Source: Eledone cirrhosa
Taxonomy: Eukaryota
Length of the DNA: 64,000 nt
Direction: 5' to 3'
Assembly: GCA_964016885.1 (NCBI GenBank)
Contig: OZ024742.1
Location: forward strand, 305,226,001 to 305,290,000
Shown: in pieces, positions 1,004 through 58,324 of the stretch
Position numbering within the stretch: position 1 is the stretch's first letter
Layout: each line of letters starts with the position of its first letter
Translations under genes and position numbers: made by a program
The notes under the pieces: generated by a model
Seen by the model: only the letters and a program-made list of their open reading frames with translations
What the model was told of the DNA's origin: nothing
Databases searched by the model: none

Positions 1004-4000
1004 GTTTACATACAGGTATATGGAAATAAAACTATTAATACAATAACAAATAACAATTGAAATCCCCAATAGGGAGGGGGCTACACAGGCATTGTACACA
1101 CCCCGAAAAAATGTACAACCCTCATCTCCATGTGCACCAAGAGTGAGTACTCCCTTCCTCTCTTCCTCTTTTTCCTCAACCTACAGGCTTATATAGAGAG
1201 AAGGCCCAACCACTCGGGCCATCTTTGCCACATTCACCTAACTTTTATAAAATTTGCTGGGGTACAGCACCTCTCTCTCCATCCTGATTCTTCTTCCAAA
1301 ATGATATTTGAAAAAACGAATCAGTTGCTCGCCGGAGAGAAAGGTGTCTGACCTCAGCTCTTTTAACCTCCTCCACCATATAACCTCTTTCACCATAGCC
1401 ATAACACATAGGAAAACCGCCTCTCCCTCGTTTTTGAAGGAGGGTGGCGGTTTGATCATGACAATGGACTCGGTGCTCAACTGGGTTGGTCCCACCCGCC
1501 ACAATAGTCGTTCTACTTAGCCCCACAGTAACGCCCGGGCAGTGTACAAATGCGTGTGCGACGGTTTCCTCGTCGCGCACGCATCTCGGACAGATCTTTT
1601 TCGAAGGGTCCCTACCTGCGCGCCCGTGTCTGTAGAGCTTCTCTCGAACTGGTAGAGCTCCTCAGTAGCACTGCCAGGCCAGGGACTTTTGGAAGTTGTC
1701 CATTGGTCCCGGGCGGAAGGTCCTACCGAACAGACTGGCCAGTTCGTCCTCCTCTACGCCTAGAGTTTCCCCGAGCGTGTCGTCGCACTTGCTGCGGACC
1801 AACCCTCTAAAGAATGTCGAAGTGATGTCTCCACTGATTGCCGGGTCCGTTTGCCAGAGGACTGTGAGCGCCTGAGTACATTCGATGTGCCAGTCGCCCA
1901 TTTTCCTCGGTCTTTTCTTTACCCAGGACTGCAGCTCGGTCAGCGAGACGTGTCGTGGGAAGGCTCGCTTCACGAATGGTGCCCACACCGGTTGTCTGGT
2001 GACGAATACGTGGAGATGACGCAGCCTGAGCGCGTGTTTGCGCATCGTCAGCCACGGCATCCCCAGCCCTCTGTTTGAAGGGTGTTGGCAGCAGATGGAT
2101 CTTCTCACCAAAGGAACCCGTTTCTTCCAAAGGAATTGGAAGAGCGCGCGCCCCATTTTGGTGAGCGTTTTGGCTGGACAAGGCACAACGGTCAAGCGGT
2201 AGTAGATGACGGACGCTATAAAAGTGTTCGCCACCTCCGCTCGACCTTTCAAGGATAGTTTGCACTCGGCCCACTTCTGGGTGAGCGCAAACACCTTGGC
2301 CGTCACCTCGTTCCAAATCTTCTCCACCTGGAGGTCAGGACCAAACCAGACCCCGAGCAGCTTTACCGGTCCTTCCGTCCAGCGTCCGACGACGTCATCG
2401 GAAGGCATCTGTTTGCCTCTCCACGTTCCGAGTTGCAAACCGACGGATTTGTCCCGGTTCAGCTTCGCTCCTGTGAACCTTTCGTATTCCTCCAGTAAGG
2501 TGCCGATCTCCCCGATTTGCGAGGTGCTCGACACCATTACTGTCACGTCGTCGGCGTAGGACGACGCCGCTTTTCGCAGTCCAGGCTCAAAAAGGATGCC
2601 CTGCAATAACTCCAATTTCCGCAGTAGTGGCTCGAGAGTCAGTACGTACAGAAGGGAGGAGAGAGGGCATCCCTGTCGGATGGATCGCGTGATATGGAAC
2701 GGCTCCGAGAGGTAGCCGTTCACCTTGACCCTTGAGCAGATGTTTCTGTTGTGCATTGCAGCAATCCAGCCCCTGAACATGGGACCGAAGTCTGCCGCCT
2801 CGAGCACCGCATCCAGGTAACGATGGTCAACCCTATCGAAAGCCTTAGACTGATCCAAGTTGATCAGGGCCCCACTGAAGCCGGGTTTACACTCTACCCT
2901 CTCTATGATGTATCGCATGAGGTGGAGGTTGTCGTGTATAGACCTAGTCGGGATTGCGCATGTCTGCGCTTCTCCCACCAGGTTTCCGACGACAAGCGCC
3001 AGCCTCTTTGTCAACACCTTGGCCAAAACCTGTAACTCTGTGTTGAGCAGAGTTATGGGAAGGAAGTTGCCTATGTCATCCCCCTTGTTCTCGTCCTTCC
3101 TGACTAACGTGACTACGCCCTTGGTCACAGAACTGGGAATTCTCCCGTTCTGCTGCCAGTTGCAGTAGACCGCTTCCAGGAGACCGGAGAACAAGTCCGG
3201 CATTGCTACGCAAAATTCGTAGGGTAGACGGTCGAGACCTGGAGATTTGTGTTTGCCGCATTGGCTCAGCGCGTCCCCTATCTCAGCGGCCGAAATCGGC
3301 CTTTCGCAGAACTTCGCCTCCCTGTCCGAGAGTCGCGGTAAGCCGTGGATGTATGAACCGAAATCCATAGCTCCTCCCGGCGCTCTGCCCTGCCCGAGCA
3401 GTTGAGTAAAGTGCTGCTGAAAGGCCGCGCACATTTGCTTCGGCTCACGTATCACGCGCCCGTCTTGGTCCTTCAAAGAACGAATCGTGGACTTGTTGCC
3501 ACTTTTCGCCTCCGTCACTCGGGCCCAGCTAACAGCTTTGGCTCCCTCGTTTCCCAGAGCACGTACTTTGCTTTTGACAACGCAGCCTTCATGCTTTGCG
3601 TCGAAGAACTGGTCCAAGGCCGTTCTCGTCGCTAGCACGCTGGCTACGTTGCCACTCCTAAGTGCCTCTTCTACTTTATCTACCAGTTCCGGCCGACAGA
3701 GAGATGCGTAGATCTCAAAGTCATCGAAGATGGGGGCCAGCTGTCGCTCGCTGTGGATCCTGGACTCGCAAATGGCTACTACATCCATACTGTGCGACCT
3801 GAGGTCGTTTAAGAGTTTTCCCTGTTTCCCGGGCATGCCTAGGCCGCGTACATTCACATATCCAACTCTTATATTGGCCATGTTGGTGCTGAAAAGTTAA
3901 AAGAAGAGGAAAAGAAATCATTCACCTCTTCGTCTCCTGGGGACCAGGCTGCACAATTTCCATGGGGGTGTTGGAGGGGTTGTTTGGTGGGGTGGTGGTC

Positions 4001-4004
4001 TCTG

Positions 4005-4005
<1 letters not shown>
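1002..4005 (-). mobile_element. L1/Tx1-clade non-LTR retrotransposon, copy A (RT intact, most of APE endonuclease deleted)
   Basis: Contains ORF 1662-3881, a C-terminal CCHC (CPRCVRDEETVAHAFVHC, about 1530-1595) and a 3' UTR ending in the (GATA)n tract at 925-1002; the 5' side abuts (GATA)n at 4005. Confidence 0.9.
1662..3881 (-). pseudogene. LINE ORF2 (reverse transcriptase) with in-frame endonuclease deletion and premature stop
   Basis: Motifs YVNVRGL...VAICESR (APE N-terminus), KSPGLDRLPYEF, PITLLNTE, LDQSKAFDRVDH, RQGCPLSSLLY, YADD. The stop TGA at 1662-1664 corresponds to CGA (Arg) in copy C; a frameshift follows before the CCHC. Confidence 0.9.
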
Positions 4006-4055
<50 letters not shown>

Positions 4056-4056
<1 letters not shown>

Positions 4057-4351
4057 TTCTTTATTTGGCACAGGGGCGTACAAAAGTGGGACATTACAAG
4101 ACGTGACGGCGGGGGTTTTACATAAAAATCATATAACTTTCACATTAATAAATAAGAATAAACTATATATATAATAAAATAACAATTGAAATCCCCAATA
4201 GGGGGGAACGTTATTGCAGGGTTGTTTTACACCCCGTGGATAGAACAACCTTGAACACCAGGAACACGTTTTGTAGGTATTCCCGTCTTCCCTCTGTTTA
4301 TCTTCCTCGACCTACAGGTTTATATACAGAGTAGGCTCATTCACTCGGGCC
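4056..4351 (-). mobile_element. 5'-truncated 3' end of a related Tx1-like LINE, copy B
   Basis: Shares aattgaaatccccaataggg and cctcracctacaggyttatatasagag...cactcgggcc with the 3' ends of copies A and C; (GATA)n on both sides. Confidence 0.8.
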
Positions 4352-4486
4352 AGATAGATAGATAGATAAATAGATAGATATACAGACAGACAGACAAATA
4401 GATAGACAGATAGATAGATAAATAGATAGATGAATAGATAGATATATTTCTGAATAGATAGATAGATAGATGGATAGATAGATATA

Positions 4487-6873
4487 TTTCTTTATTAGCC
4501 ACAGGGGCACAAAAGAAGGGGACAAATACAAAGGGGGAAGTTTACATACAATAAAAACGTGTAAAATATTATCACAAATGCAATTTAAAAATTAGTCGAT
4601 TTTCCCCAATAGGGGGAGACATTACATATGGGTAACACATACCCCTGAAAAAAATGTGCAACCCTCATCTCCAGGAGTACGAAGAGTTTGTACTCCTTTC
4701 CTCTCCCCCTCTTTTTCCTCAACCTACAGGCTGATATAGAGAGAAGACCCATTCACTCAGGCCATTCTCGCCACTTTCACCCACCTTTCATAAAACTTGC
4801 TGGGCTGCAGCACCTCTCTCTCCATCCTGATTCTTCTTCCAAAGTGGTACATAGCCCCACAGGTCGGTGACGCCCGGGCAGTGTACAAATGCGTGCGCGA
4901 CGGTTTCTTCGTCTCGCACGCACCTCGGACAGATCTTTTTTGTAGGGTCCCTGCCCGGGCGCCCATGTCTGTAGAGCTTGTCTCGAACTGGTAGAGCTCC
5001 TCGGCAACACTGCCCGGCCAGGGACTTTTGGAAGTTGTCCATCGGTCCCGGGCGGAGGGTCCTACCGAACAGACTGGCCAGTTCGTCTTCCTCTACGCCT
5101 AGAGTTTCAGTATTTTGCTTCTGACAACGCAGCCCTCATGCTTTGCGTCGAAGAACTGGTCCAAGGCCGTTCTCGTTGCTAGCACGCTGGCTACGTTGCC
5201 ACTTCTAATTGCCTCTTCTACTTTATCTACCAGTTCTTTCTCGGTTCTATTTCTATCTAACGCTAATTCTTTACTTAAAACTAACGAGTCTAATCTAACT
5301 GCTCTCTTGAGAGAGTACAACCATCTGTTGTTGACAATGGCCCCTGTCAAGTGCTGCTTAACTAAAGTGCTAATCCGTCTACTGTAGGCTTTGCATGTCG
5401 GTAACGACAAGTTCAGCTTCCAGTAGCCGGGTCCTTGTCTATGGGTTCTATCAAGGTTGACCATGCAGGTCACAAGTTTGTGATCTGAATAGGCAACCAG
5501 CTTAACATGTCCTTATCCTTATTTCTAACTAGAACCCTATCTAGGTACGATCTAGATGTTCCGCTACGATTAGTCCACGTCCACAGTGGCACAGTTGGAA
5601 AATCTAGTCGATATCTATCGGCCAGGTCAAATCGGCCAATTAACTGTTTGAGGCTGTTACACACCCCTCTATCGGGACATGCTGCCACATAGTCCCAACG
5701 TGCATCTAGGATTCCATTCCAGTCCCCCACTAAAAGCAAGGAGCGGGGACGTTCCCACAAAAGTCTCTAGACGTTTGAAGAAGTCTGGCCGCGGTGTCCC
5801 GGATGGGGAATATGCGGCCACCAGCCTGAAGGCTCCACCTTCACTACCGTCAACGTCTAGGACCACCAGTCGACCCTCCGGGTCCAGATGTACGAGGTCC
5901 AGGTGTTTCCGCAGCAAAACGGCAACCCCACCCCCACCCCCCGGCCGACAGAGAGATGCGTAGATCTCAAAGTCATCGAAGATGGGGGCCAGCTGTCGCT
6001 CGCTGTGGATCCTGGACTCGCAAATGGCTACTACATCCATACTGTGCCGCGTACATTCACACATCCAACTCTTATATTGGCCATGTTGGTTCTGAAAAGT
6101 TAAAAGAGGAGAAGAAAATACTCACCTCTTCGTCTCCCGGGGATCAGGCCGCACGGTTTCCATGGGGGTGTTAGAGGCGCTGTCTGGGTGGGTGGTGGTT
6201 TCCGGAGGGGTGGGGACGGAGATGTTTGGTGGGGTGGGCTGTCTGGGGTGGGTGTGTCTGGGGTGAGGGTGGGGAAACTTTTTAAAAGAACGCGGTTAAT
6301 GGGTTTAACACAAGGATTACCCACGTCCTTAGGAAAGTTTTCCTTTAAAGACTTATAGGTGTCCGTAGGGACCCTAATCATCTTTAAATTAGGTTTGTCT
6401 ACACAGTTCGAAAAATTTTCCATTCGGTTTTCACCGAAGGGTCGTTGGAGATGACCTCCATTAAAGTTTTGTTTTTACTGTTTATGTATGTGTAATGTTC
6501 TTGTTGTGTTGCGGTGTTTTTTGTCTGTTGTTCTTGTGGAGCTTTCGTTTTGTTGTAGGTATTTGTGTTTGGAGTGATGTCGTGATTTTGTTTTCGGGAC
6601 GGGGGGTTTTTGTTTGTAATGTTTGTGTTGTTTGTGTTGGTGGTTGTATGTTTGTAGTGATGTTTTTTATTTTTTTTTGTTCTTGTGGTGTCTTTTCTTC
6701 TTTCTTTTCGAACGGAGAGGCTCTCACTCATCATCACTTGGTGATGATGTGGGGGCCTCGTCCGTTGTGGTGTCTGTGTTATTTGGAAGGGGTATATTTT
6801 GGGGAGCCGTTGTGTTTGTGGGTCTTTTTGCAGTGGTTTTAGGTGGAGTGGGGTTGGGTGGGACTGTGCTTGC
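4487..6873 (-). mobile_element. Tx1-like LINE, copy C (APE endonuclease retained, RT deleted, probable ORF1 remnant at 6100-6870)
   Basis: APE motifs GVAVLL, GRLVVLD, LVGDWN, SYLDRVLV and GPGYWKLN are spread over frameshifted ORFs at 5099-6064; the sequence jumps near 5108 from CVVRSKI to the post-RT region; CCHC at about 4875-4935; flanked by (GATA)n. Confidence 0.88.
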
Positions 6874-7727: not shown

Positions 7728-8352
7728 TATATATAAATGCATGCACGTATTATGTATGTATGTATGTAGGTAGGTAGGTAGGTAGGTAGATAGATAGGTA
7801 GGGGGAGGGAGGGAGGGGGCTGGCAGGTAGGTAGATAGGTATATATGTATGTGTTGCGTTTGCCTTGCAACAGTTTTCTAGACACTTTAAAATCTGTCTG
7901 AAAGATTCCCTTAATAAGGTAAACATTAACAACGAAGCACGAGAAACACTGGCAATATACAAAGCCCAGTGACGAAATCTGATTGCTACCGGTGTAAAGG
8001 AATTTGAAATGATGGAGCTTATGCTGTAGTAAATAAACAAACGTGCATACATACATGGATGCAAACATACAAGCAAGGATAAATCTATACATATGTACAT
8101 AGAAACATGTACATATATTTCTGTATATGTGGTTATGTGACAATGTATGCTTGACATGTGTGTCTGAGTGTGTGACTCGTAATGTCTACTCACAGCTATC
8201 CTACCCACACATACATATTGTCAACTCAACAGGTGACAAATGAAACAGTTAAATCACTTGCCAGCCGAGTGGTCAGATAATGGCTAGACCATTCACTATT
8301 ACAACACTATGCTTTCAATGTCTATCAAATTGTAATATTGTTTTGTATTATT

Positions 8353-8557
8353 GGATTGGCAGTATCGATAGTGCTTTGCAGCTTAGAGTTACTGCGCTTT
8401 ACATTCTGAGTTCAAATCTCACGGATGTTAGCATTGCTTTTATCCTTACATGTCGATAAAATAGTACCAGTACCAATAACACACTAGGGACAATTTAATC
8501 GATTTTCCCTTCCCCAAATTTGCTGGCCTTGTGCCTAAATCAGAAGCCATTATTATT
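8353..8557 (+). mobile_element. tRNA-derived SINE (family 1), decayed
   Basis: A-box tggcagtatcg, B-box gagttcaaatc, tail gctggccttgtgcctaaa. Confidence 0.8.
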
Positions 8558-8807
8558 AAGACTAGTAGTAGTAGTAGTAGCAACAGCAATAGTAGTAGCA
8601 TCAGTGCATATATTTTATTTATTTATCAGCTTTTTATTTACTGTTTGATGTTAATTTTCATTTGTTTTTACTTGTTATGCTCTTGTTTTATTTTCATTGT
8701 TAAATTTACAATCTAAACTATAATAAAGAAAGGAGTGCTGGACTGCATCCAGAATATATTTTTTTTACCCCGTTTGTAAAATGAGTTGGATTACTTTGAA
8801 TAAATAA

Positions 8808-8976
8808 CTGTTTCTACGTTAGGCACAAGGCCAGCAATTACCCAGTGCATTACTGGTACTTTATTTTATCGACCCCGTAAGGATGAAAGGCAAAGTTAAC
8901 CTCGGCGGGATTTGAACTCAGAATGGGAAGGGCCGTAACTCTATACGTCAAAGCATGGCGTCCGACCCTCTCCCAA
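8808..8976 (-). mobile_element. SINE family 1 with 16 bp TSD
   Basis: Reverse complement of the family consensus; TSD tactttgaataaataa at 8792-8807 and 8977-8992. Confidence 0.9.
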
Positions 8977-9696
8977 TACTTTGAATAAATAATGAATGAA
9001 TATTACATAATTCATCTACTAAATTTCGTGGCTGTTGATTAAATATATTTTATAGCTTCTTTAAAATTGTCAAATGTCAACACTTCCGGTTAGCGGCCGT
9101 TATATTATAACACTTATAATCGCATATATTTCCGTCGCTAATTTTCTCCTAATGCAGTTTATATATAATATCTCGTCTTTTTTAAAATGTATCATGGATT
9201 ACTGATTACAGAAGACTGTAACACAGTCTTCGTTCAATTTCTGTGTATATTGTCAATTACGATTTTATTTACATGCACATATATTTGTGCATAATATCAA
9301 TATACACACTACACATGCTAGCAGAAAACCACCCTTCAGGTATTCTTAATTCTTTAACTTTCCTGAATTTCACCTATTTTCAACTAAATGTTCCAAACAC
9401 AAATATGATAAACATATATTGTTACAAAATATTTGTTATTGCTGTTATTTTGCCACAGTTTAACACCAATCGAACAGACCCTTCATCTAATTCATTCTAG
9501 CCATGATCATATCGTTTTAATTATAGAAGGATGGTATCTAGGTATATACATATTATCAAATGTGCTCTTTACTGTTTTTAAATTAACCTGTAGGTTGTGG
9601 GAAATAAAGCTGCTATCCAGGGGTGGTCGATTGCATAGAAGCTTCTTTATTGCTTATAATGTAAGAGGAGGTGTTTATTATCTGTAGCGAATCAAG

Positions 9697-9920
9697 GGCG
9701 GTGGATTAGCAGTATTGGTAGAAAGTCAGACATCATGCTTTGCAGCATAGAGTTACGGCCCTTTATGGTCTGAGTTCAAATCCCGCCGAGGTTAACTTTG
9801 CCTTTCATCTTTACAGACTCGATGAAATAAAGCACCAGTAATGTACTAGAGTCAATTTAATCAACTTTCCCCTCCCCTTCAAATTACTGGCCTTGTGCCT
9901 AAAGTAGAAATCATTATTTC
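9697..9920 (+). mobile_element. SINE family 1, full length, 12 bp TSD
   Basis: ggcggtggattagcagtattgg...gagttcaaatcccgccgagg...; TSD tagcgaatcaag at 9685-9696 and 9921-9932. Confidence 0.9.
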
Positions 9921-10366
9921 TAGCGAATCAAGTGTCCCAATGAAGACTACTTCATTGGTTCGAGTTGTAGCATGATGTGCTACCATTTTCACGTTTCGAG
10001 CGACCACGTTGAGGCTACAATGGACACTTTGTCTTGTCTAAAAGCATTCAATTGTTCGTTGAATATTTGCTCCTATTACTGAAACAAGAATTTATAGCAG
10101 CTATCAAACTGTTCTTGTAAGATTCCCCTCAACACTGCATATAACAGAACTGTTGTCATTTATCCAACGCTTTAGGTTCAGCAAGAGTGTCACTTAACTG
10201 ACTTGACTGCCTAATTACCGCAGGGAATCGTTACCGACGGGTTTCAAACCGTTAGCTTTTCCACAAGTAGGCTTATAATGACATCGATTAGTTAACATGG
10301 CTGTTAATTGATAATTCCTATCATATGCATCCATATCACACACAAACACACACACCAACACACACC

Positions 10367-10428
<62 letters not shown>

Positions 10429-10928
10429 CATGTTCAGTGTAATGAGAAGGAACATAATTACCCAGTAACTAGATTACATTTCTAGAATCGGCAAACTCGA
10501 TTTGGGCTTGAATTAAACATAGAAATATTTTAACAGAGTTAACAATACACCCTAAATCCAGTACACTGTATACATATTAATGTTCTCATCTCGAGTGGAC
10601 ACATCTTTCGCCTTTTATATAAAATAAAATAAATCATATATAAATGTGTATGTGTGTGTGTGTATCATTGCGAGGCTATGGTAAATGTAATTTAACCAGA
10701 GAATGAGATCGAACTCGGCGTCTGATGATTGCGAAGTGAAACTCTTAACCGTACTCTCATGCTCCGTCCATATACACAGCTACACAACCACATACGTCTC
10801 TACCACTATGTCACTCATTCAAACACACACACGCACGTCTACTTGGCGATCTACTCGTCTGGCTACATAGCACCCTATCCATGGTATTCGGCTCTTACCA
10901 ACATAGTGCCGAAAATCAATTCATCTTT

Positions 10929-10959
<31 letters not shown>

Positions 10960-11150
10960 ACCATTAATTCCACCGCCACCGATCCTGCTCGTGGGCCATT
11001 GTCTAATACTTTGAAGAAAAATCAAATTCTACCTCTTCCAGTCTAGGGATGAAGTGATTTATTTTCAAAGAGGTTGTTGATTCCACTCTGCGGAATAAAA
11101 TTTACCAACAATATAGTAATAATGATGATGATGATGATGATGATGATGAA

Positions 11151-11193
<43 letters not shown>

Positions 11194-11361
11194 GTGATGA
11201 TGTTTTCTGTATTGCACAACTCTACAAATATTATGGTGCAATAACAGGGACACAAACATTTATAGTGTGCGTGTGTGTATATATATATACATGCACACAC
11301 ACATATATGTATATATATGTGTGTGTGTGTGTTTGTTTGTGTGCATGTTTGTGTGTATGAG

Positions 11362-11435
<74 letters not shown>

Positions 11436-11441
11436 ATATAT

Positions 11442-11487
<46 letters not shown>

Positions 11488-11920
11488 CGGTGAGAGAGCG
11501 AAAGATCGTAGGATACATATATATATGTAAGTATGTAGGTGACAGCCACTCAGGGAGGATCAATAAAGTTTTGTAAATGTGACCTCACTAGTATTATATA
11601 TAGATCTGCAATAACCTTAAACCTATTGCTACTTTAAAAGATTAGCTCCCAAAGAACCCAGCCCGCTGTCAGTCATTCAATATCCGTAGCAATTGTATTT
11701 TTTTTATACTTCTCTAATGTCCTTAGAGAAAGCATAAGCAGTCTAATAACTCCCATTCCTGAAAGAATCACAGGAGTAACTATTCCTGGGAATTCTTACC
11801 GGAATATTATGCTGAGTCATAGCTAGCTATTTACAGTAAATATGTCTTTTTTTTTAAATATCATTTAAAATCAGTCTACATTCAGTTCTAAACATTACTA
11901 CAACAGTAGCAACAGCAATG

Positions 11921-11974
<54 letters not shown>

Positions 11975-11981
11975 ACTCGTG

Positions 11982-12044
<63 letters not shown>

Positions 12045-12061
12045 GTGCTACTACTATTAAT

Positions 12062-12438
12062 AATTGTTTCTACTTTAGACACAAGGCCAGCAATTACCCA
12101 GTGCATTACTGGTACTTTATTTTATCGACTCCGTAAGGATGAAAGGCAAAGTCAACGTCGGCGGGATTTGAACTCAGATCGTAAAGGGACGTAACTATGC
12201 TGGAAAGCATGGCGTCCGACCCTCTACCGATACTGCCAATCCACCTGGTTTCAGATTTAGGATCAAGGCCAACAATTTTTTGGGAGGAGAAAGTCGACTA
12301 AATCGACTCCAGTCTGCTACTGGTACTTTATTTTATCGACCCTGTAAAGATGAAAGACAAAACTAAACTCGGCGGAATTTGAACTCAGAACATAATGGGT
12401 CATAATTCTATGCTGCAAAGCATGTTGTCCAACGTTCG
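12062..12438 (-). mobile_element. Two tandem SINE family 1 copies (12062-12245, about 12255-12438)
   Basis: Each has ctggtactttattttatcgac...ggcgggatttgaactcaga or a close variant. Confidence 0.85.
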
Positions 12439-12439
12439 A

Positions 12440-12640
12440 TAATAATAATAATAATTTCTTCATTTGCAACAAGGACCGAAATATAGGGAAAAATACAAAG
12501 ACTGACTGTGGGGGTTACAAAAAAATCAAATAAAAACATATATATATATATAACAGATAATAACAAACAACAAATAACATAACAACGAAAATTCTCCAAT
12601 ATGGGGGAGTACCACACAGGGTGACTCAGGAGCCCCACCT
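12440..12640 (-). mobile_element. Probable 3' UTR fragment of a related L1/Tx1 LINE with (TTA)n tail
   Basis: Loosely parallels the 3' UTRs at 4056 and 4487 (atttctt...caaggacc...tacaaag...ggggttac...attctccaatatggggg). Confidence 0.45.
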
Positions 12641-20318: not shown

Positions 20319-20325
<7 letters not shown>

Positions 20326-20419
20326 CCCATGAAAATATTTATTTAAAAAAGGCAGCGGAAAATCCTTTTCATACTGAAACTGGTGCCGCTTGTTGTAAGA
20401 TATTACATAAAAACTGACA

Positions 20420-20479
<60 letters not shown>

Positions 20480-20548
20480 TGTCAATACTATGGTGTGAAA
20501 AGGATTTTCCGCTGCCTTTTTTAAATAAATATTTTCATGGGAATTTTT
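20319..20548. repeat. Inverted repeat (~53 bp arms) with a nested tgacactg-(TA)n-cagtgtca palindrome
   Basis: aaattcccatgaaaatatttatttaaaaaaggcagcggaaaatccttttca versus its reverse complement at 20496-20546. Confidence 0.9.
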
Positions 20549-22143: not shown

Positions 22144-22308
<165 letters not shown>

Positions 22309-22380
22309 AGTATATGCATATATATATTTGTATATATGTATATATATATATGTATGTATGTATATATATATATATATATA

Positions 22381-22765
22381 TATAAACGTTTGAATATGTG
22401 TAATAAAGCCAAAGCAATGCAGGTATGGACATAGAAAAAATAATGCAATTGTAAAAGATATTGTTGACAATTCGCCTTTACCTTAGATTTATTTAAATGT
22501 CCTTAATTTTCGAGATAATATCTCTTCTTCAGAGGGAAATAAAGGTCTCAAACCAGCGTTCTAAATATCTTGGCAAGATATTTAGAACGCTGTTTTGAGA
22601 CCTTTATTTCCCTCTGAAGAAGAGATATTATCTCGAAAATTAAGGACATTTAAATAAATCTAAGGTAAAGGCGAATTGTCAACAATATCTTTTACAATTG
22701 CATTATTTTTTCTATGTCCATACCTGCATTGTTTTGGCTTTATTACACATATTCAAACGTTTATA
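22381..22765. repeat. Near-perfect palindrome, 192 bp arms, 1 nt loop (22573), between (TA)n tracts
   Basis: Centre aaatatcttg-g-caagatattt; two mismatches seen; contains CTGAAGA-agagatattatctc-GAAA at 22614-22638. Confidence 0.95.
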
Positions 22766-22803
22766 CCTCATTACACAATGCTTCAAGTGAACTATAACCT
22801 CCT

Positions 22804-22847
<44 letters not shown>

Positions 22848-22901
22848 CGGAAAAAATGAAACGAAATTTCATTTCCCACTCTTAGTACGGCTGTTACTTA
22901 A

Positions 22902-23328
22902 ATATAAGTATGTCCACGTACATACATATATGTATACAGACGTACAGTAGTATGTATATATATATACATACATGCACACATATATATATATGTACGTATG
23001 GATTCACCGAACATTTATTATAATGCTCGGTGTGTTTGTAAACAAACATCCCGTATTAAGCCGTAGTGTCTAGCAATCATCGTTGCTCGTTTGTTCAACA
23101 CTGACAAAGGAAACTAGTACACCGTTCCTTTGTCAGTGTTGAACAAACGAGCAACGATGGTTGCTAGACACTACGGCTTAATACGGGATGTTTGTTTACA
23201 AACACACCGAGCATTATACTAAATGTTCGGTGAATCCATACGTACATATATATATATGTGTGCATGTATGTATATATATATACATACTACTGTACGTCTG
23301 TATACATATATGTATATACGTGTACATA

Positions 23329-23334
<6 letters not shown>
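22902..23334. repeat. Near-perfect inverted repeat, ~210 bp arms, 12 nt loop
   Basis: ...caacactgacaaaggaa-actagtacaccg-ttcctttgtcagtgttg...; a few mismatches. Confidence 0.95.
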
Positions 23335-23396
<62 letters not shown>

Positions 23397-23578
23397 CTCT
23401 CTTGTGTTGTTATTTTAATTTTATCCTTTATACTCTTCCCTTCATTCTACACATCTCACACATCTTATACACACCACGCATCTCAACGTACACCCACTTA
23501 CATCTCTCTCTACCACCACCTGACCTTGATACCCGGAGATTTAACCATTAGCATTGTCGAGGCTTCCAAACGACTTAA

Positions 23579-23644
<66 letters not shown>

Positions 23645-23735
23645 CGAAAGATTAATAATATTCATTGATTACGCAATGAATATAGTTTTACAATAGATTA
23701 AAAGCACTCTACAAAGAAGTTTTCTGGAGTTAGTA

Positions 23736-24582
23736 ATATTATTCAAAATATTAATAGATGAATACGTTCACATAATCAAAATATATGTTTTATTATATAT
23801 ATGTCGGAGGTAGTGTGCTGCTTTTTCAGTACGCCCTCATCAGATAAAATATATGAATTGATGTATGACACCTCAACGGTCTTGATGGTTCAATTCCAGT
23901 ATTGGCAGTGATTTATTACAACAAATCTCAATATTTATATACACAAATAATAACATGATAAACTTAAATATGATGAAGAAGAGGATGTGGAGCGAGATGT
24001 AGGTAAAAGGAGGGGGTGAGTATGAGGAAATGTAAGAAGAAATGAAGAGAGAGAGATAGAAGAGAAGAGAGATGAAGAGAGAAAAAATAAGATAATATAG
24101 AAGAAGAGGAGAGAGAGAGAAGAGGGAAGACGTAACTGCAAAAAGGAATCTTTCTTTCATTCTTTCCTTTTTGCGGTTACGTCTTCCCTCTTCTCTCTCT
24201 CTCTCCTCTTCTTCTATATTATCTTATTTTTTCTCTCTTCATCTCTCTTCTCTTCTATCTCTCTCTCTCTCTTCATTTCTTCTTACATTTCCTCATACTC
24301 ACCCCCTCCTTTTACCTACATCTCGCTCCACATCCTCTTCTTCATCATATTTAAGTTTATCATGTTATTATTTGTGTATATAAATATTGAGATTTGTTGT
24401 AATAAATCACTGCCAATACTGGAATTAAACCATCAAGACCGTTGAGGTGTCATACATCAATTCATATATTTTATCTGATGAGGGCGTACTGAAAAAGCAG
24501 CACACTACCTCCGACATATATATAATAAAACATATATTTTGATTATGTGAACGTATTCATCTATTAATATTTTGAATAATAT
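23736..24582. repeat. Inverted repeat, ~415 bp arms, 15 nt loop; Penelope pLTR-derived
   Basis: Arms 23736-24148 and 24164-24582; CTGATGA-gggcgtact-GAAA at 24475-24494; homologous to the 3' end of the 43-45 kb element. Confidence 0.95.
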
Positions 24583-24784
24583 ATAAATATATATACACAG
24601 TATATTAATAAATGGAAACTATATTTATAAAACCATAATTATATATATTTCAAGGGCGACCAAGGGTAATTATGGTGCGCTTTCCATTTATTAATATATT
24701 GTATATTTACTCCACTAACTTGTTGAGTGCTTTATAACAGTTATAAAAAATGTTGAATCCCAACAAATTAAATATAACCTCTGC

Positions 24785-24825
<41 letters not shown>

Positions 24826-27774: not shown

Positions 27775-28244
27775 GGGAGATGGCAGTATCAGTAGAGCGT
27801 CAGACAACATACTTTACGGCATAGAGGTTTACACATCTGAGTTCAAATCCTACCGAGGTTGGCTTTGTCTTTCATCTTTACAGGGTCGTAAAATAAAGTA
27901 CCATTAATACACTGGGGTCGATTTAATTGACTACCACCTCCCCAAAAATTGTTGGCCTTGTGCTTATATAAGAAACCAGTATTTCTTCTTTCCTTAATCC
28001 CTTTCTTTTATTATTCTTGCTACCGTTAGGACGGTGGATTGGCAGAATCGTTAGAGCGTCGGGCAACATGCTTTGCAGCATTGAGTTACGGCCCTTTACG
28101 ATCTGAGTTCAAATCCCGCCGAGGTTAACTTTGCCTTTCATCTTACGGGGTTGATAAAATAAAGTACCAATCACGTACTGGGGTGGATTTAATCGACTTT
28201 CCCCTCCCCCAAAATGACTGGCCTTGTGCGATATAAAAAAAAAC
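27775..28244 (+). mobile_element. Two SINE family 1 copies (27775-27984; 28027-28244 with 17 bp TSD)
   Basis: Family motifs; TSD attattcttkctaccgt at 28010-28026 and 28245-28261. Confidence 0.87.
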
Positions 28245-29072
28245 ATTATTCTTTCTACCGTCTCTTCACTCGTTCTTTGTTCGTCCTTTCATTATTCTCT
28301 CAATTCTGTCCTTCATTCATTCTTTCGTTTTAATTCTTTTTTCATTTCCTTCTTTTTATAACCTTTCTTCCTCTATTCCTCATACTCTCACACATTTCAT
28401 TCTTTCTTCCTTTATTTAATTATTTTTTCTTTTATTTATTTAACTATTCCTATAAAGTATCATAGATGTGAATGAATGTTGATAGAGAGTTAAGGTAATT
28501 TCTACGATTATTGGAACCTCTAAATGTCTACATTAAGTCTCGGTCGATCCAATTTCAACCAATGTGGTAATTCTTCATTTATTTCAGATATTGCTATATT
28601 TATTTCTTTATATTTTTTCATTCCTTGTACTCTGAATTCATTGTAAAGTTCAAAAGGTGGTGTCAGTTGAAACCTGGTTGTACCCAAACGTGGTATAGAA
28701 TGCTATACCTGTGCCTCCGATTGAGTGTTAACGTGGTCCGTGACGATCCGTCCAAACCATGTTAGGAAAGAAAACGAACGTTAAATTATGATGATCGTTT
28801 CTGTATTATACTTGTATTATACTTGTACGGTTAAATAGACGTGTATATGTGTGCTTGTATAACTGTGATAACTTTTGATGCGTTTCGACCAGTAATGGCC
28901 CAGGCCATGTCTAAGTTAATTGCACCACATGGCAAAATGTATATATCTGTTTAAATATACATGCTAGACCATATATGTTCCGGAGCATTACAGTAAGTCT
29001 TACAATTTACATATTTTGTGCCTGTTTCGCTAGCCCTACACTCACAAACACACGCACACATATACATACATA

Positions 29073-32471: not shown

Positions 32472-33755
<1,284 letters not shown>

Positions 33756-33897
33756 TTTATAAATTTATTATAATAAATTGAAGTGAAAGCAACTGGTGCG
33801 TGTGTTTCTTATTGGCAACATGACCCTCCCAAAGTATAACAATATCGGTTTTAACACACGTTTTCAGATAAAGAATCTTGCTAAACAAATTCAGAAA

Positions 33898-33951
<54 letters not shown>

Positions 33952-33954
33952 ATA

Positions 33955-34260
33955 TATATATATATGAATGTATATATAGTGTATTTTGCAATACACTGTA
34001 TGCTCAATTAAAAGCATTTCGAAGACCTTACGCTATTGTTTTCAGCAAACAGGGGAGATAAAGCTGACAGAGCTCTGTTTCGCACTTTTTCGTGCTTAGT
34101 ACTCCGCGGAGTACTTAGCTTTGATAAGCCCTGTTTGCTGAAAATTAAAGTAATCGAGACTATCACTACTCTAAAACAAAAGCGTAAGGTCTTCGAAATG
34201 CTTTTAATTAAGCATACAGTGTATTGCAAAATACACTGTATATACATTCATATATATATA
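33955..34260. repeat. Nested inverted repeat (outer ~88 bp arms, inner 16 bp arms)
   Basis: Outer arms 33955-34042 / 34173-34260; inner ttttcagcaaacaggg 34039-34054 / ccctgtttgctgaaaa 34129-34144. Confidence 0.9.
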
Positions 34261-34406
34261 TCGCTATTTCAGAGCACCAATTCTAATATATATATATATA
34301 TATGTATGTGGCTATGTATGGGACAGAGTTGTGTCTGTGTATAATTAACGCATTTATGAGTAAACAAAAGGGAGATTGTTCAATCAATACACACACACAC
34401 ACAAAC

Positions 34407-43152: not shown

Positions 43153-43210
<58 letters not shown>

Positions 43211-43344
43211 GACGTGTGTATATATATATATATAACCAAAGATTAGTATCGTTCGTTGAATACTCAATGAATACAATTTTACAATAGATTAGACGCACTC
43301 AACAGAGGTTTTCCTAGAGTAAAAACTAACATAATAATAGCGAA

Positions 43345-43975
43345 TTAAATAGACTCTCTTATTCAACAACTATGAATATTGCTCAAAATATAGCAAAAAT
43401 AAATAGTAAAAATCTTAATTTGAACCAACCTTTAATTAGCAATAATAACAATAATAATAACAATATATTAGTTAATGGGAATAACAATAATAATAGTTTA
43501 AACATGAATAATAGTAGAACACCTTTAAATAATAATGTGAATAGTTTAAAGTCTGTAAATAACATTGAGAAGAAATGTAATTGTAGAAAGAAGTCTGAAT
43601 GTCCTTAACAAAATAATTGCCTTGACAGGAATCTAGTATATAAATGTACCATTAAGACAAATAATAATATATGTAACTACATTGGTGCCACTTCATCTAA
43701 ATTTAAGGAACGTTGGTTTAATCATAGACAATCTTTCAGTAAACCAGATAAGAAATGTTCAACTTCACTTTCACAATTAATATGGTCTTTAAAGGACAAT
43801 AATATTAAATATTCCATCTCTTGGACCAAATTAAAGATGGCTACCCCTATCGAAACTCAACTATTTCGCAAAATTGCAATCTTTGTAACCTTGAGACTCT
43901 ACAGATAATTACAAATTAAGACAATTTAATCAACAAAAAAAAAATGAATTATTTAGTAGTTGTCACCATAAAATT
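43345..43975 (+). pseudogene. Naiad/Penelope GIY-YIG endonuclease remnant
   Basis: LSYSTTMNIAQNIAKIN...KCNCRKKSECP*QNNCLDRNLVYKC...YIGATSSKFKERWFNHRQSF...STSLSQLIWSLK...ISW, then after frameshifts CNLCNLE and ELFSSCHH. TAA at 43606-43608 replaces the expected Leu. Confidence 0.85.
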
Positions 43976-44177
43976 GGTAAAAGTTTCCAGGCAATGTACA
44001 AGTTTTCGAAAAATTATTGACAATTAATAATTTAATATATATATAAGTTTTTGCCTTATCGTAGTAATAATTTATTAATATTTATATGTTTAGAATAATC
44101 TCATTGTCTCGTTATCCTATGTTTTGATTAGGACAGTTCAATATGTAATTAGACATCATTTATGTTATATACAATAG

Positions 44178-44369
44178 GGCGGTGGATTGGCAGTATCGGT
44201 AGAGGGTCGGACGCCATGCTTTGCAGCAAAGAGTTACTTCCCTTTACGGACTGAGTTCAAATCCCGCCGAGGTTAACTTTGCCTTTCATCCTTACGGGGT
44301 CGATAAAATAAAGTACCAGTAATACACTGGGATAATTGCTGGCCTTGTGCCAAAGAGTAGAAACAATTT
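44178..44369 (+). mobile_element. SINE family 1 nested in the Penelope element
   Basis: Near-consensus copy; TSD tatatacaatag at 44166-44177 and 44374-44385. Confidence 0.9.
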
Positions 44370-45462
44370 ATGATATATACAATAGATGATTTACGGTTTT
44401 CGAAATATCGCGGAACGTGAGAGTAGAGATGTTATAAATGTTTGTATATGGTGAATGAGTTATCTTCCTTTTGTTTACATTGTCCGTAAAAATTTCTTTT
44501 CTTTTGACTAGCTTGAAATATGTAGATTAATAATATATAGACTATCATTAAAAGGAAACTATATATCAAAATAAGTAAATACAGAAGTAAATATAACCTA
44601 TCATTAATGTAACAACTTTTGAGAGTAAACGTAACTGCAGTTTAATCCTAGGAATTAAATGAAAATTAAAGAATAGTAAGATTTTATGAAGAGAATATCA
44701 TAATTAAATTAAATAATTTGGGTAATAACTGATCTAAATATATTATATGTATTGATGGTGATATATGCATGGTATTAGATTTTAATACATATTTAATAAT
44801 TATTTAAATACGCTTTAAAGATTAATTCTTTTAAAGTTGTAACAAAATCTATACTGATTAATTTTGGTTTAATATATAAGTATAATTAGCTAAAGCATAA
44901 TCAAATACAAAAGATACTCAATTGATTATGTAAATTGATTGGCTGTCCTATTTGATCTAGCATTTGAAAACAACGGTTTTTTTCTCTATCCCCCTCTATC
45001 TGATGTTCCCTTATTTTTTTATTTATTTTCTTTACCCCCCTCTGTTCCCTTTATGTTCCCCACACCTTCCCTCTTTTGTCGTTATTCCTCTTTTCTTTTT
45101 TATATATTTATTTACTCATTCATCCATTTAATTTTTATTTATTTATCTATTTATGTATGTATTTATTTATTATTTTTTCTTGCCTTTCCTCTTCTTTACA
45201 CCCTCTCTCATATCTCTAATTTGCTCTACGTCCTTTTTTTCTTTAAGTTTATCGTATTATTTGTGGTATATAAACATTGAGATTTGATGAAATAAATTAC
45301 TGCCAATACTGGAATTGAACAATCAAGATCGTAGCGGTATATCAAATCATATATTTTGTCTGATGAAGACGTACTGAAAAAACAACACTACCTCTGAAAT
45401 ATATATAATAAAGTATATATTCTGATTATGAGAATACTTTTCATTTGTTAATATTTTGAATA

Positions 45463-45516
<54 letters not shown>

Positions 45517-47365
45517 AAAATTTCGCTCTACATGGCTGAATACAATAAATGTAATCTGAGTTTTTCGAATATTAATAATAATATTCAATTCGTTTGCAAT
45601 TATGCAAACAAGCCTCAATTCTATAGCCATGTCAGTAGAATGAACACTTCATTCTTGCTCTTGTGTTGGCATGCGAATAGAACTGCAGTCACTAATGTTT
45701 CTGGGTATCACCCTTCATCAGAACAGCTCACTGTTCACCTGCCAAACTATCAGAGCTAGTGAAAATATATGCTATTTTCAAAAATACACAGTGACTGTGT
45801 CGTCACCAAAAATCTAAGGTTGTTTCATTAAAATCATAATAAAAATATCCACCTCATATGATTCATGAAATCGATAAAATAAATGCTATAATATTTATAG
45901 CGATATTTCATTGATAATAAGATACGTGTTATAAAGCGAGTTCACTGGAAAACAACGAGATGTATGTATTGTAGGAATAGAGTTGCTAGTTAATATACTA
46001 TCGTATATACTTCGCATACTTAGCCGAAATGTGTGGAAGAGTAGTCCTGCAGTATGAGAGGAATGTACCCGACAAGTGTTGTGTTACTCTCAGTGATGAC
46101 CAAAAATTACTGTATGTACCAGGATACATAAACGATAGCCCGTTCATGTGATTTATAGCAGGTCTTTTCATACTAGTCCGTGTGACAAATCCGGCGCCCC
46201 GTTGAATTTCATTCGGTCAGCGATCATCAATGAAGTCTGCACAGTTTGTACGTCTTTTTTCTCATCATAAACATTTAGTTAAACTTTTACTGAACTTATT
46301 CGTTCATCTCCCTTATTTTGTATTAAATATTTGATCCCGCGGTGATTTAGTAAAATAAATGTTTTTACTTAAGTAATTACATGATATTATAGTGTTAAGA
46401 ATTGTTTGCTCTTCTTCATTTCAATACCTTTGCAAAACATTAGTAAACGCTTATACAGAAATGTTTTTCAAATGTATTATCGTGGATTCATTTTTCTATT
46501 CTCTGCAAAAAATAAAGAATTTTCTAATTCGGCCAAACGCGCTGAAAGCCAGCCTCAAAGCGAAACATTCAAATTAATAACGATATCAATAATTTATAAA
46601 TAAAATACTAATAATTATCTGATTGAAATTTTCTGACGATAATCGCAATTAATAAATCATATAGTGATTGATTATAGAATTAAGATTAAATTGTAACTCA
46701 CATAGTTTCAAGGGAGATAATATAGAAACGTAAATGTTAGTTAGTTCCCTTATAAGCAAATTTTAAGAGTTATTTCCCTTATGTTGTAATTGTGAAAAAT
46801 GATTAAATATGCATTTTAGTTTATTACATATACACTATTTTTAATATATATACGTATAAATATATATATTGACTGATATATGAAATAGCTTTTTATTTAG
46901 TTTTGTCTTCGTATATTTAAAGACTAATATCTGTCCGGTTTCGAGTTGACTCAATCAATCATGAACCTTGTGTTCATATAACAGAGTTTACTTAGATGCA
47001 AGTCTTCAAACCTGATTCTGGTGAAAATCACTTCAGTAATTGTGCTGCAGATATATAAATTGTGTATCACCCATATTGATCTCAACTTCGTCGGGGGGGG
47101 GGGGGGGCATGGCTTGAAATTGTCACGAGATCTGTTCCTTCTCCATCCAGGTAACATTTAAAAAAATAAAGTGGTAGGAAATTTGTGTTTGCTTTCAACA
47201 ATGTATTTATTGTATTGATTTAGAATGAAGCTAGAATTGATTAAATAAGACATTTGTATGTGTAAACCGGGAGACCCCCCTCCCCCATATATATACATAT
47301 ATATATTCAAGGGTCAATAGAGGTACAAAAAGTCTTATTAGTTTCACGCTTTATATTGGAAAGAG

Positions 47366-52829: not shown

Positions 52830-53645
52830 CGGGGAGAGGGGAGGGGAGAGAGATTGAGAGACTAAACAAATGAAGAGATATAGAAAGTGAATCGATAGGG
52901 AGAGACTAGAGGGGAAAAGGGGAGGAAAGGACAGCAAGGAAATATGTTTAATTAGTCCCGAAGCGAAAGAGGGTGAACTGGAAAATAGCGAGGAAATATA
53001 TTTTTGTAGAGACATGAGAGAGAAGGAGAGGGAATGGATTAAATTTAATTTTTTTTTTTGTTTAACTCGGAGACTATTTGAGGGAAAGGGTTGATATAGA
53101 TGAGCGTAGAGAGAGATTAGGAGAGAAGGGGTGAGGAAGGAGAGAGAGATATAGCGGAGAAAGGCTAGAAAGACATACTAATAGAATAAATACAAGAGCG
53201 GGAAAGATAAAAATGTATAAATTAAAAGAAAGATGCTGAATTGTTTTAAACGAAAGAAAGATGTGAAATAAATGAAGTAGGAATAAAAAGGCTATAAACA
53301 GTACTGAGCAATAAAGGAAGGAGAGGGTAAAATGAAAGAGATTAGCTGGGAAGGAGTGAGAAATGTTTTTTTCCACGCTTTCCCAAATTCGCTATCTTGT
53401 TTCAATGTTCATTTAGTACCGCATTGTTTCAAAAATATATATATTATATTACCTTACAAATAAGTTGCATGTTTTGACTTTAAAAAATGGTGATAAAAAT
53501 ACCGTTGAAGACAGTGATGAACCTTATATATCGTTGCTTCTACAATAAAAAAAAAAATGATTGCAGATTTGTCATGCCTTTATTTCTATAGTTTAAATCT
53601 CTTGTATGTTTAATAAAGTGAATGTCTGTTTCGGTTTTTTAACAG

Positions 53646-54116
53646 ATCGCAGAAACGTATGCATTCTTGCCGCGAGAAGCCGTCACCAGATTTCTCATGT
53701 CTTGTTCTGATTGCCAAAAACGAATGCACCTGACTGGAGAAAACAACACAAACAGCAGTAGTAGCAGTAATAACAACAATAACAACAGCAGCAACAATAC
53801 CAACAACACCAATATCAGCAGCAACAACAACAGTAACACCTACAACTTTACCGGGGTTGGTGGAATTGGAGGTGTATGTAATACTGGAATTGGTGTTGGA
53901 AGTATTGGCGGTTCCGTAGGAAGTGGAGGCGTTGCCGTCGGTGGCATCACTGGCGGCATCGGGACCAATACAGCTGGTGTAGGTGACAATGGCAACAGTG
54001 GACAAATGAAGAACATCCGGGTCACGGATGATCCACCAATCATTGACTTCAGCGTGCCTATAACCCAAACATATCTAAACCACATGAGAAATAAAGGGTA
54101 TTATTACCATGATGAT
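53646..54116 (+). CDS. NOL4: Internal coding exon of a nucleolar protein 4 (NOL4/NOL4L)-like gene
   Basis: Acceptor ttttttaacAG ends at 53645 and donor GTAAGT starts at 54117; 471 nt = 157 codons, phase 0/0. Translates IAETYAFLPREAVTRFLMSCSDCQKRMHL...IIDFSVPITQTYLNHMRNKG, matching from memory the NOL4/NOL4L motifs YAFLPREAVTRFLMSCxECQKRMH and DYNMPITxxYMKHM. An N-rich and G-rich low-complexity linker lies between them. Confidence 0.9.
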
Positions 54117-54298
54117 GTAAGTTGAGCTCACATTCTTTTCTTTAACTTTGATATTGCACTTTAGCTCCATGCCTTTCTTATTTTCTTATTTAGTACTCTT
54201 TACTTTTCTTTTCTTATTCCACCTTGATGATAGGTAAACTTTTGCATAATCTGGTCACCTTCTTATATATATGTGTGTGTGGGGTGGTATTATATAAG

Positions 54299-54330: not shown

Positions 54331-54566
54331 TGTGAGTGTGTGTGTAAATCACCATATGATTGTTTTTGTGAAACAAGGAGCCAACAGTCGAACCTCTTCA
54401 TTTTCACTGGACCTGCTACAAATAGCAGCTAAGACACACGATACTATGTATAAATAGTTTGTCGCATTGAAATTTCGCTAGAGTTGATTTATTTACACCG
54501 GCAGCACATCAAAGAAGCTGTCATCAAAAGTATTAAAGATATCAGACTCTCATATATATTGACTAT

Positions 54567-54928
54567 GGATTGGCAGTATCGGTAAAGGGTTAGACACCAT
54601 GCTTTGCAGCATAGAGTTACGGCCCTTTATGATCTGAGTTCAAATCCCACCGAGGTTAACTTTGCCTTTCATCCTTACGGAGTCGATAAAATAAAGTACT
54701 AGTATTACACTGGGGTCAATTTAATTGACTTTCCCCTCCCCCAAAATTTCTGGTCTTGTGCCTATATAAGAAACCATTATTTAGTCAATCTTCTGATTTC
54801 AAATCCCGCCGAGGTTAGTTTTGCCTTTCGACCTTACGGGATCGATAAAATAGAATACCGGTACGCAGTGGGGTTGACTTAATCGACATTCCCCTCCTCC
54901 AAAATGATTGGTTTTGTGCCTAAACCAA
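54567..54928 (+). mobile_element. Two tandem SINE family 1 copies (second 5'-truncated)
   Basis: Family motifs at 54567-54781 and 54798-54928. Confidence 0.85.
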
Positions 54929-55641
54929 TATACTAAATAAAAGTCATACAAAGATATAGGACAGTAGCTGTGAAGATTATGGTACGAAGATCAGGACAAG
55001 GGTGACAGAGCTCATTCCATAAGTAGGTACTCCTGAGAAGTTGAACATTAAAGAAAAGCTACTCACGCAAATGACAGGGTTTACATAGTTTGGGGGAATA
55101 GATCGAGACTAGAATGCAAACTGATTTAGCTACGAATAAACAACTTTGCTGACGCATTCAAAGATACACATAAAGACTGGCCAACTCAATTATCTACCTC
55201 TTCATTTGTCAATGGCAAATGCGGACAAAACATGGAGCGAAAACTCATAACCTGTGAAATGGCAAATCCGAAAACAGAAATATCCTGGGTTCAGAGCCAG
55301 AAGAAAACCATGCTGGCTACGGTGTGGTTGAGTCACAAACGCACTGTACTTGTGTGGCTGAGACACAAACACACTTCACACCTACAGGATGACACTAGTA
55401 CAAACTGCTCGCGTTGTTGCAGATCGCTAACATCTTCCTGGTTGAAGTGGATAATAGGTATTTTGAAGAATATATATATATATATATATATATATTTCTC
55501 TTAAGCTATATTCCAGGTGTCAACAGACACATTCACAAATGTACACACACACTCCCCCCCCCCACACACATATATACACATATATATATACATATATATA
55601 CATATATATACACATATATACACACATATACATATATATAC

Positions 55642-55750
<109 letters not shown>

Positions 55751-55990
55751 TATATATATATATATATATTCCATCTTTCTTGCTCAAAATTTGATTTTAA
55801 TTTTAAATCTTTAATTTTTAGTTTTTAACTCCTTTTAATTCTTTTTAGTTTCTATTTCAATACTCAACATTTGATAAGATGAATTTTAATAATACATCGA
55901 AACCGGTAATACTTTATATACATTATAAAACATAAAAAAAAAAAATTGTCCCTCTCATTTTTTCAATAATGTTATCTTTTCATTAATTGT

Positions 55991-56181
55991 GGACTGGCAG
56001 TATCGGTAGATGGTCGGACGCCATGCTTTGCAGCAAAGACTTACGACTTACGGCTCTTTATGGTTTGAGTTCAAATCACGCTGAGGTTAACTTTGCCTTT
56101 CATCCTTACGGGGTCGATAAAATAAAGTACCAGTAATGCACTGGGTAATTGCTGGCCTTGTGCCAAAAGTAGAAACAATTA
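55991..56181 (+). mobile_element. SINE family 1
   Basis: ggactggcagtatcggtag...gagttcaaatc...cctttcatccttacggggtcgataaaataaagtacc. Confidence 0.88.
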
Positions 56182-57330: not shown

Positions 57331-57471
57331 TATACACCTTACACTTATATTTTACATATTATTATAATTAGTTTTTTTAATTTAGTTAACCTATAATTAG
57401 TACTTTACTACAGAGAACTTCATAATTTTATTTCCCTCTTACAGCTCTCTTTTCCTAAAATTAATACCTAA

Positions 57472-58138: not shown

Positions 58139-58324
58139 ATTATTTCTGAAGACAGCATATAAATGATGTGAAGGTATATATTTCCTCTGTTAGTTTGTAA
58201 TATTTTTACATAGATCTATATGATATACATACCAACACACATATATATCCTAGAAACGATCGTAAAATGAAGAATGTTTTAATATAAGGAACTTGTTCTT
58301 TGTTTTTATTCATTGTTTTTATTA

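Follow-up and report, generated by a model that had tools for sequence, protein, structure and literature searches.

Paired 3' ends of Penelope-like elements as the probable basis of three near-perfect palindromes in a (TA)n cluster of Eledone cirrhosa

INTRODUCTION

Insertions of endonuclease-bearing (EN+) Penelope-like elements (PLEs) are described as carrying a pLTR in head-to-head inverted arrangement, with a tail at one end only (PMC8557442, legend of Figure 2; PMC3846280). Further features given there are an ORF start that is covered by the pLTR and tail together, palindromic sequence where the inverted copies meet, and partial tandems. The inverted truncated copy, the one-sided tail, and (TA)n targeting have thus been published already, and the origin of the PLE inverted repeats is named as an open question in PMC8557442. 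For Poseidon of Anolis (PAc), a PLE, in vitro cutting and extension of both target strands, two reverse transcription start sites that bound the tail, and a predicted dimer are reported in PMC11167929. Non-LTR retrozymes, which have been proposed to be nonautonomous PLE derivatives, consist of short noncoding tandem units, each bearing a type I hammerhead motif (bioRxiv 10.64898/2026.07.22.740005). An octopus genome is reported to contain Penelope families with recent activity (PMC13282606), and an Octopus family with (TA)n preference, Hydra-1_Obim, is found in the supplement of PMC8557442.

Here, we analyze a 64-kb stretch of the Eledone cirrhosa genome (below: the window) which contains three large palindromes, P1, P2, and P3. 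They show the known, ordinary PLE footprint of an inverted pLTR with a tail on one side and insertion into TA repeats, and partial tandems also occur in this genome (locus L091). Unlike the published EN+ PLE insertions, both halves are cut to 200–420 nt, which leaves the palindrome alone; the tails have 40–95 nt rather than the 30–40 nt usually quoted for EN+ PLEs; and five families are stacked within 2.6 kb. The P1–P3 locus itself is ordinary (PLE stumps in TA repeats) and its wider value is modest. The rule that one end of a pair is tailed and the other tail-less, with either arm being the longer one, separates fold-back from two-cDNA models. In addition, such palindromes are prone to mislabelling as MITEs, miRNA hairpins, or assembly chimeras.

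RESULTS AND DISCUSSION

Geometry and composition of the palindromes

A preliminary description of the window had reported three large palindromes with arms of 192, about 210, and about 415 bp and loops of 1, 12, and 15 nt. All three are present in the assembly. The arms of P1 (22381–22572 and 22574–22765) have 192 nt with 2 mismatches and enclose a 1-nt loop; those of P2 (22899–23112 and 23125–23338) have 214 nt with 4 mismatches and a 12-nt loop; those of P3 (23736–24148 and 24164–24582) have 413 and 419 nt with a 15-nt loop, and they differ by 2 substitutions and by 2 length changes within a (GA)n tract. The three sequences are mutually unrelated and all are far above chance expectation. When P1 was folded as DNA (z = −45), none of 100 shuffled sequences was as stable. 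The window contains no other tight palindromes of this quality. The features of the cluster are as follows.

22162–22384, (TA)n array left of P1
22381–22572, minus strand, P1 tail-less inverted copy, family-1 PLE 3' end (pLTR)
22573–22765, plus strand, P1 tailed copy, with its 5' truncation at a natural quasi-palindrome of 9 nt
22614–22638, plus strand (mirror copy 22532–22508 on the minus strand), P1 minimal hammerhead core with a 5-bp stem II
22766–22805, plus strand, family-1 tail, 40 nt
22806–22843, (TA)19 between the tails of P1 and P2
22844–22898, minus strand, family-2 tail, about 55 nt
22899–23112, minus strand, P2 tailed copy, the 3' portion of a tandem unit of 422 bp that bears a hammerhead
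23113–23338, plus strand, P2 tail-less copy, which holds the 12-nt loop and is thus the longer arm
23394–23580, plus strand, fourth family, a lone 5'-truncated tail-less 3' end (187 bp) with TA arrays on either side
23581–23643, (TA)31 array
23643–23735, minus strand, family-3 tail, about 93 nt
23736–24148, minus strand, P3 tailed copy, putative pLTR of a Hydra-type PLE
24149–24582, plus strand, P3 tail-less copy, which holds the 15-nt loop and is thus the longer arm; blunt join
24475–24494, plus strand, P3 hammerhead-like core within the tail-less copy
24600–24785, plus strand, fifth family, a small, older inverted stump with tail
24785–24822, (TA)19 at the end of the cluster

Each palindrome is a pair of outward-facing 3' ends from one repeat family, a different one for each palindrome. 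One end stops at (TA)n while the opposite end has an extra tail of 40–95 nt. The two copies of P1 are joined through a 4-nt overlap, with the loop base coming from the tailed copy, and those of P2 through a 3-nt overlap inside the GAAA box of the hammerhead. We consider it very likely that the palindromes are paired 5'-truncated 3' ends which lie head to head between TA repeats, one of them tailed, and that families 1 and 3 are PLE pLTRs, with family 2 being a unit likely moved by a PLE. The palindromes had been described as separated by (TA)n. TA arrays are indeed located there, and the intervals additionally hold the one-sided tails (22766–22805, 22844–22898, and about 23643–23735) and the 187 bp of the fourth family (23394–23580).

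Near-perfect tight palindromes are a known class of artefact. This property of P1–P3, and the fact that no loop-spanning read was obtained, would fit fold-back chimeras from library preparation or assembly. Such a chimera would mirror one side including the tail and the flank, whereas the mirror found here stops at the fixed tail-less site of the respective family. Moreover, the loops are parent sequence, the arms differ at 2–4 places, and the same layout is found with long spacers at more than 20 other loci. This internal evidence against a chimera is strong, and we regard an artefact as highly improbable. The arm mismatches, on which the preliminary description had relied for the same conclusion, are a weak argument; better ones are that the ends lie on family-wide endpoints and that the exact P1 junction recurs at three other loci. 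In the read data (three contig sets from one sample and one RAD run) the unique left flank has a depth of 2–4, the repeat pieces are short, none of those listed spans a loop, and the two bases private to P1 are uncovered. An empty site was not seen at the cluster in the same low-depth contig data, in which breaks occur within repeats. The palindrome structures are confirmed at the level of the assembly only.

Family 1 is a canonical EN+ Penelope-like element

A first look at its own genome gave 1607 candidates for family 1; the best 40 were scored and show 97–98% identity. Open frames of 905 aa are intact at three fetched loci. The encoded protein (P0001) has Pfam matches to RVT_1 (residues 443–629, E = 1e-14) and to a C-terminal GIY-YIG domain (residues 813–892, E = 2e-6). 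Its motifs include GPKF at 247 (GxKF), DKG at 358, and CDKC at 820 ahead of YVG at 827, which corresponds to CCHH-type cysteines between the GIY and YIG boxes. A Cys linker is present at residue 796, with Neptune and Nematis being the candidate clades. The pLTR together with the tail encodes the ORF start, positions 22667–22807 of the window matching P0001 residues 9–55 with 94% identity; a pLTR plus tail that covers the ORF start is described for PLEs in PMC3846280. At motif level, all 34 matches, from 28 of 28 loci, have the same minimal hammerhead core with its bulge and 5-bp stem II, in agreement with the description given in PMC4209133. Family 1 is a canonical endonuclease-bearing PLE, and the arms of P1 are its pLTR.

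Family 3 and a Hydra-type element

For family 3, there are 2454 first-look candidates in its own genome, the best 40 of which were scored (93–96% identity). Family-3 sequence is located directly upstream of a PLE-type ORF, in sense orientation, in L103 (90%). Of 11 further loci, 8 have a sequence resembling family 3 upstream of their ORF start (71–85%; 6 sense, 2 inverted). In L103 and L136, the tail extends further in the direction of the ORF. Hydra motifs (RWR/RWK, DKT, a CxCx5C-type linker, and no CCHH) were recognized in these ORFs and a 750-aa relative. When the L103 ORF and P0003 are compared with the published motifs, RWR replaces RWK, and in P0003 F is found at the position of the last linker cysteine. 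The YRDD and YIG/YVG boxes of the Hydra-type proteins are legible by motif. Pfam reported neither an RT nor an EN domain in three of three Hydra-type proteins (P0002, P0003, and an 821-aa relative), and blastp did not link them to P0001; the Hydra identity thus rests on motifs.

The RWR/RWK-type motif, DKT, the CxCx5C-type linker, and the lack of CCHH are shared with Hydra-clade PLEs as described in section 11 of PMC8557442, as are CxH near the C-terminus and TA targeting. The Octopus family Hydra-1_Obim, as given in the supplement of that paper, likewise prefers (TA)n. Judged by motifs and position, family 3 represents the pLTR belonging to a Hydra-type PLE. Boxes of a hammerhead core are found in 24 of 28 family-3 loci, with a weak stem II and a fold that is not significant.

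A related Hydra-type family, G000 (e.g., C1:341722530, C2:65998847), has many same-score copies and 821-aa open frames, which suggests very recent activity. The window itself contains older Hydra-type fragments (43162–44014, 45172–45522, and 56998–57312) which match the C-terminus of P0003 and the tail and pLTR of family 3.

Family 2 is a hammerhead-bearing tandem unit

Family 2 (405 first-look candidates in its own genome; the best 40 were scored, with 97–100% identity) is a 422-bp noncoding unit which occurs as tandem arrays. The core motif of a type I hammerhead was found in 26 of 29 loci. The non-LTR retrozymes (bioRxiv 10.64898/2026.07.22.740005) are likewise built of short noncoding tandem units, every one of which carries a type I hammerhead motif. 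Family 2 differs from that description in additionally having tailed and tail-less ends and the inverted layout. It is likely a nonautonomous, noncoding unit that is moved by a PLE, the partner being putative.

In L101 (342–790), the end of a Hydra-type ORF is fused directly to a family-2 unit, a junction that is absent from the other related ORF ends examined. This fusion may possibly reflect a template switch from the RNA of the autonomous element to the nonautonomous unit. P0002 was considered as the partner of family 2 and rejected, its locus being devoid of family-2 sequence. For the ORF located beside family 2 in L044 and L112, no tie to family 2 was found.

At the RNA level, Rfam returned no hammerhead match, and the three hammerhead motifs fold no better than shuffled sequences (z = 0.42, −0.21, and −0.85). 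Rfam matches to hairpin miRNAs were below the gathering scores and were rejected as generic stem matches.

End rules across loci

In all three families, the arms end either at a fixed site against (TA)n or via a fixed tail (40, about 55, and about 93 nt) which is then followed by (TA)n. If an end is counted as TA-flanked when four or more TA units follow within 16 nt, this applies to 27 of 30 ends in family 1, to 25 of 31 in family 3, and to 15 of 23 terminal ends in family 2, in which 8 further ends continue into the next tandem unit; some of the loci counted are near-duplicates on one contig and hence not all are independent. Outward-facing inverted pairs have exactly one tailed and one tail-less end in 25 of 26 cases (12/12, 7/8, 5/5, and 1/1; binomial p = 4e-7 at p = 0.5). 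This count takes in the three pairs of the window and the nonindependent L092 and L098; one pair with two tail-less ends and a long internal TA array was excluded, and among 19 hand-picked loci of family 1, 7 are without a countable pair.

Among 24 pairs, the tailed arm is longer in 13 and the tail-less arm in 10, with one pair being equal, and the differences extend to kilobases. These lengths are k-mer estimates, which are rough for family 3 and the tandem family, and the comparison omits L098 as well as L046, which is tailed at both ends. The joins have overlaps of 0–4 nt in those cases in which the match to the reference was good. The exact P1 junction occurs at four loci (P1 and three others), with the center base coming from the tailed copy in three and from the tail-less copy in one. 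Because both center polarities occur, this junction formed more than once at the natural quasi-palindrome.

The long inverted arms, high copy number, and TA flanks are also reminiscent of elements that have long terminal inverted repeats and transpose as entire palindromes, namely MITE-like DNA transposons or foldback elements, and the exact P1 junction at four loci as well as one composite junction repeated along one contig would agree with this. The tail, however, makes the ends asymmetric, and symmetric terminal inverted repeats were not found. The internal ORF encodes RT and GIY-YIG domains instead of a transposase. Most junctions are unique, and the four loci with the same junction vary in center polarity and carry their own variants. 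We consider this interpretation largely refuted already and exceedingly improbable.

A 4.9-kb composite, which consists of a full-length family-1 element, a partial tandem, and an inverted copy, occurs with the same inner junction at several places (L091, L092, L098, and L010; contig C5, 12.5–13.2 Mb). The tail is present at the right end in L012 and L014 and missing there in L010. The repeated composite represents either a segmental duplication or retransposition of the whole inverted composite.

Two cDNAs or one folded strand

From the geometry of the ends we infer that two cDNAs, primed from the two cut ends of the target, are to be favored over one cDNA that folds back; the model is favored because 25 of 26 pairs are one-tailed and because the tail-less arm is the longer one in 10 of 24. 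According to this proposal, the GIY-YIG nuclease would cut both strands of a (TA)n tract, and reverse transcription of RNA from a single source element would be primed by both freed ends; the variants that both arms share in P1 and in P3 are in keeping with this. One cDNA would start at the end of the tail and the other at an internal, tail-less start site. The two would stop independently and then be joined through an overlap of 0–4 nt, so that a near-perfect palindrome would result when both stop at about the same place. Each insertion would leave TA on both sides and thereby restore the target, into which additional families could then insert.

PAc provides a parallel, having two reverse transcription start sites that bound the tail, an AT-rich target, and cutting and extension of both strands. 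It differs in belonging to another clade, and the accessible text of PMC11167929 does not demonstrate that two cDNAs are joined to give an inverted product. A literature search, the scope of which excluded subscription journals, found, among the papers listed, none that states the two-cDNA model or that pairs "twin priming" with the inverted pLTRs of PLEs. Our confidence is evenly balanced as to the model in its full form: twin target-primed reverse transcription, with a dimer using both TA ends, fixed opposite starts, one source RNA, and end joining, operating in canonical, Hydra-type, and retrozyme-like families and generating self-feeding nests of hairpins, with about 10^4 near-perfect palindromes per genome.

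With the PLE origin kept, the mirror arm might instead be made by a single strand that folds back and primes itself, or by self-priming on an antisense template (Arkhipova et al., 2013), a model put forward in the Discussion of PMC3846280. The short overlaps at the joins of P1 (4 nt) and P2 (3 nt), the position of the P1 join at a natural quasi-palindrome, and the private variants common to both arms are in line with this. Fold-back of a tailed cDNA, however, makes a longer tail-less arm impossible, yet such arms are found in P2, P3, and 10 of 24 pairs; fold-back of a tail-less cDNA requires a second template for the tail; and the join of P3 lacks an overlap. Self-priming on an antisense template, if combined with template jumps, remains compatible with the data. 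Overall, we judge a self-primed mirror arm to be rather unlikely and prefer two separately primed cDNAs.

Age of the palindromes

Variants common to both arms which are rare or absent in 28 other copies were found in 2 columns of P1 and 9 of P3, with none in P2. The arms of P3 differ from each other by 1 column over 262, and from the nearest of 28 other copies by 9. Later gene conversion or template switching between the arms could have erased older differences, with which the variants shared by the arms are also consistent. Such a process accounts for the identity of the arms, not for their origin, and a diverged source copy which was transcribed and moved in trans would produce the same P3 pattern (the best 40 of 2454 candidates were scored); we consider later conversion or switching between the arms unlikely. 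The recent age ascribed to the events in the preliminary description is plausible for P1 and P2, which show 0–3 differences from their nearest copies, while P3 may look young via arm-to-arm gene conversion. RNA editing as the source of the arm mismatches was rejected, the mismatches being too few and of mixed type.

Five families among TA arrays

The cluster (22160–24822, 2.6 kb) holds five families among TA arrays. The fourth family has 635 candidate copies with 96–97% identity, and its other copies have the same tailed and tail-less ends. For the fifth family, there are 2307 candidates; in the window copy, the hammerhead core has been lost by deletion. All five families appear to have entered one ancestral TA array. 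Repeated hits on TA by different families had been proposed earlier, which proved to be an understatement given the five families and the fact that ends abut (TA)n at most other loci. The special hotspot that was part of the same proposal is not needed: the inverted arm is the usual insertion form of these elements.

The genome has 3.0 Gb and abundant TA microsatellites. We sampled 40 stretches of 10 kb at even spacing (400 kb in total) and found 2 nonsimple palindromes of at least 200 bp at ≥95% identity and 7–8 at ≥85%. Such palindromes are common genome-wide, with a rough figure of one per 200 kb, but they are dense at P1–P3, where three occur in 2.2 kb as compared to 2 (≥95%) in the 400 kb sampled. 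Under a model of uniform density, the number of such triplets in the genome would lie between about 0.3 (strict) and 19 (loose), a rough figure that is based on 400 kb and on a cluster chosen post hoc. The expected number of triplets would rise if TA targeting restores its own target.

Other features of the window

Decayed inverted structures among TA arrays were found at 32476–34307, 20320–20547, and 56653–58035, with arms that are 72–91% identical; these are probably older insertions of the same kind. A frame of 744 aa (1665–3896, minus strand, within 1029–6202) with an endonuclease-like start and an RVT_1 match (E = 1e-24) belongs to a LINE-type element, with partial duplications nearby. 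An interspersed repeat of about 190 bp, which we take to be SINE-like, has many copies with 70–93% identity (8350–12440, 27780–28250, 44180–44370, 54550–56180, and 58030–58145). At 53643–54122 (plus strand) there is an open frame of 160 aa which has no Pfam match and is rich in Asn and Ser after the first approximately 30 residues. These first residues recall, in our estimation, the N-terminal motif of NOL4-like proteins. The frame is possibly an exon, which could place the cluster in or near a long intron.
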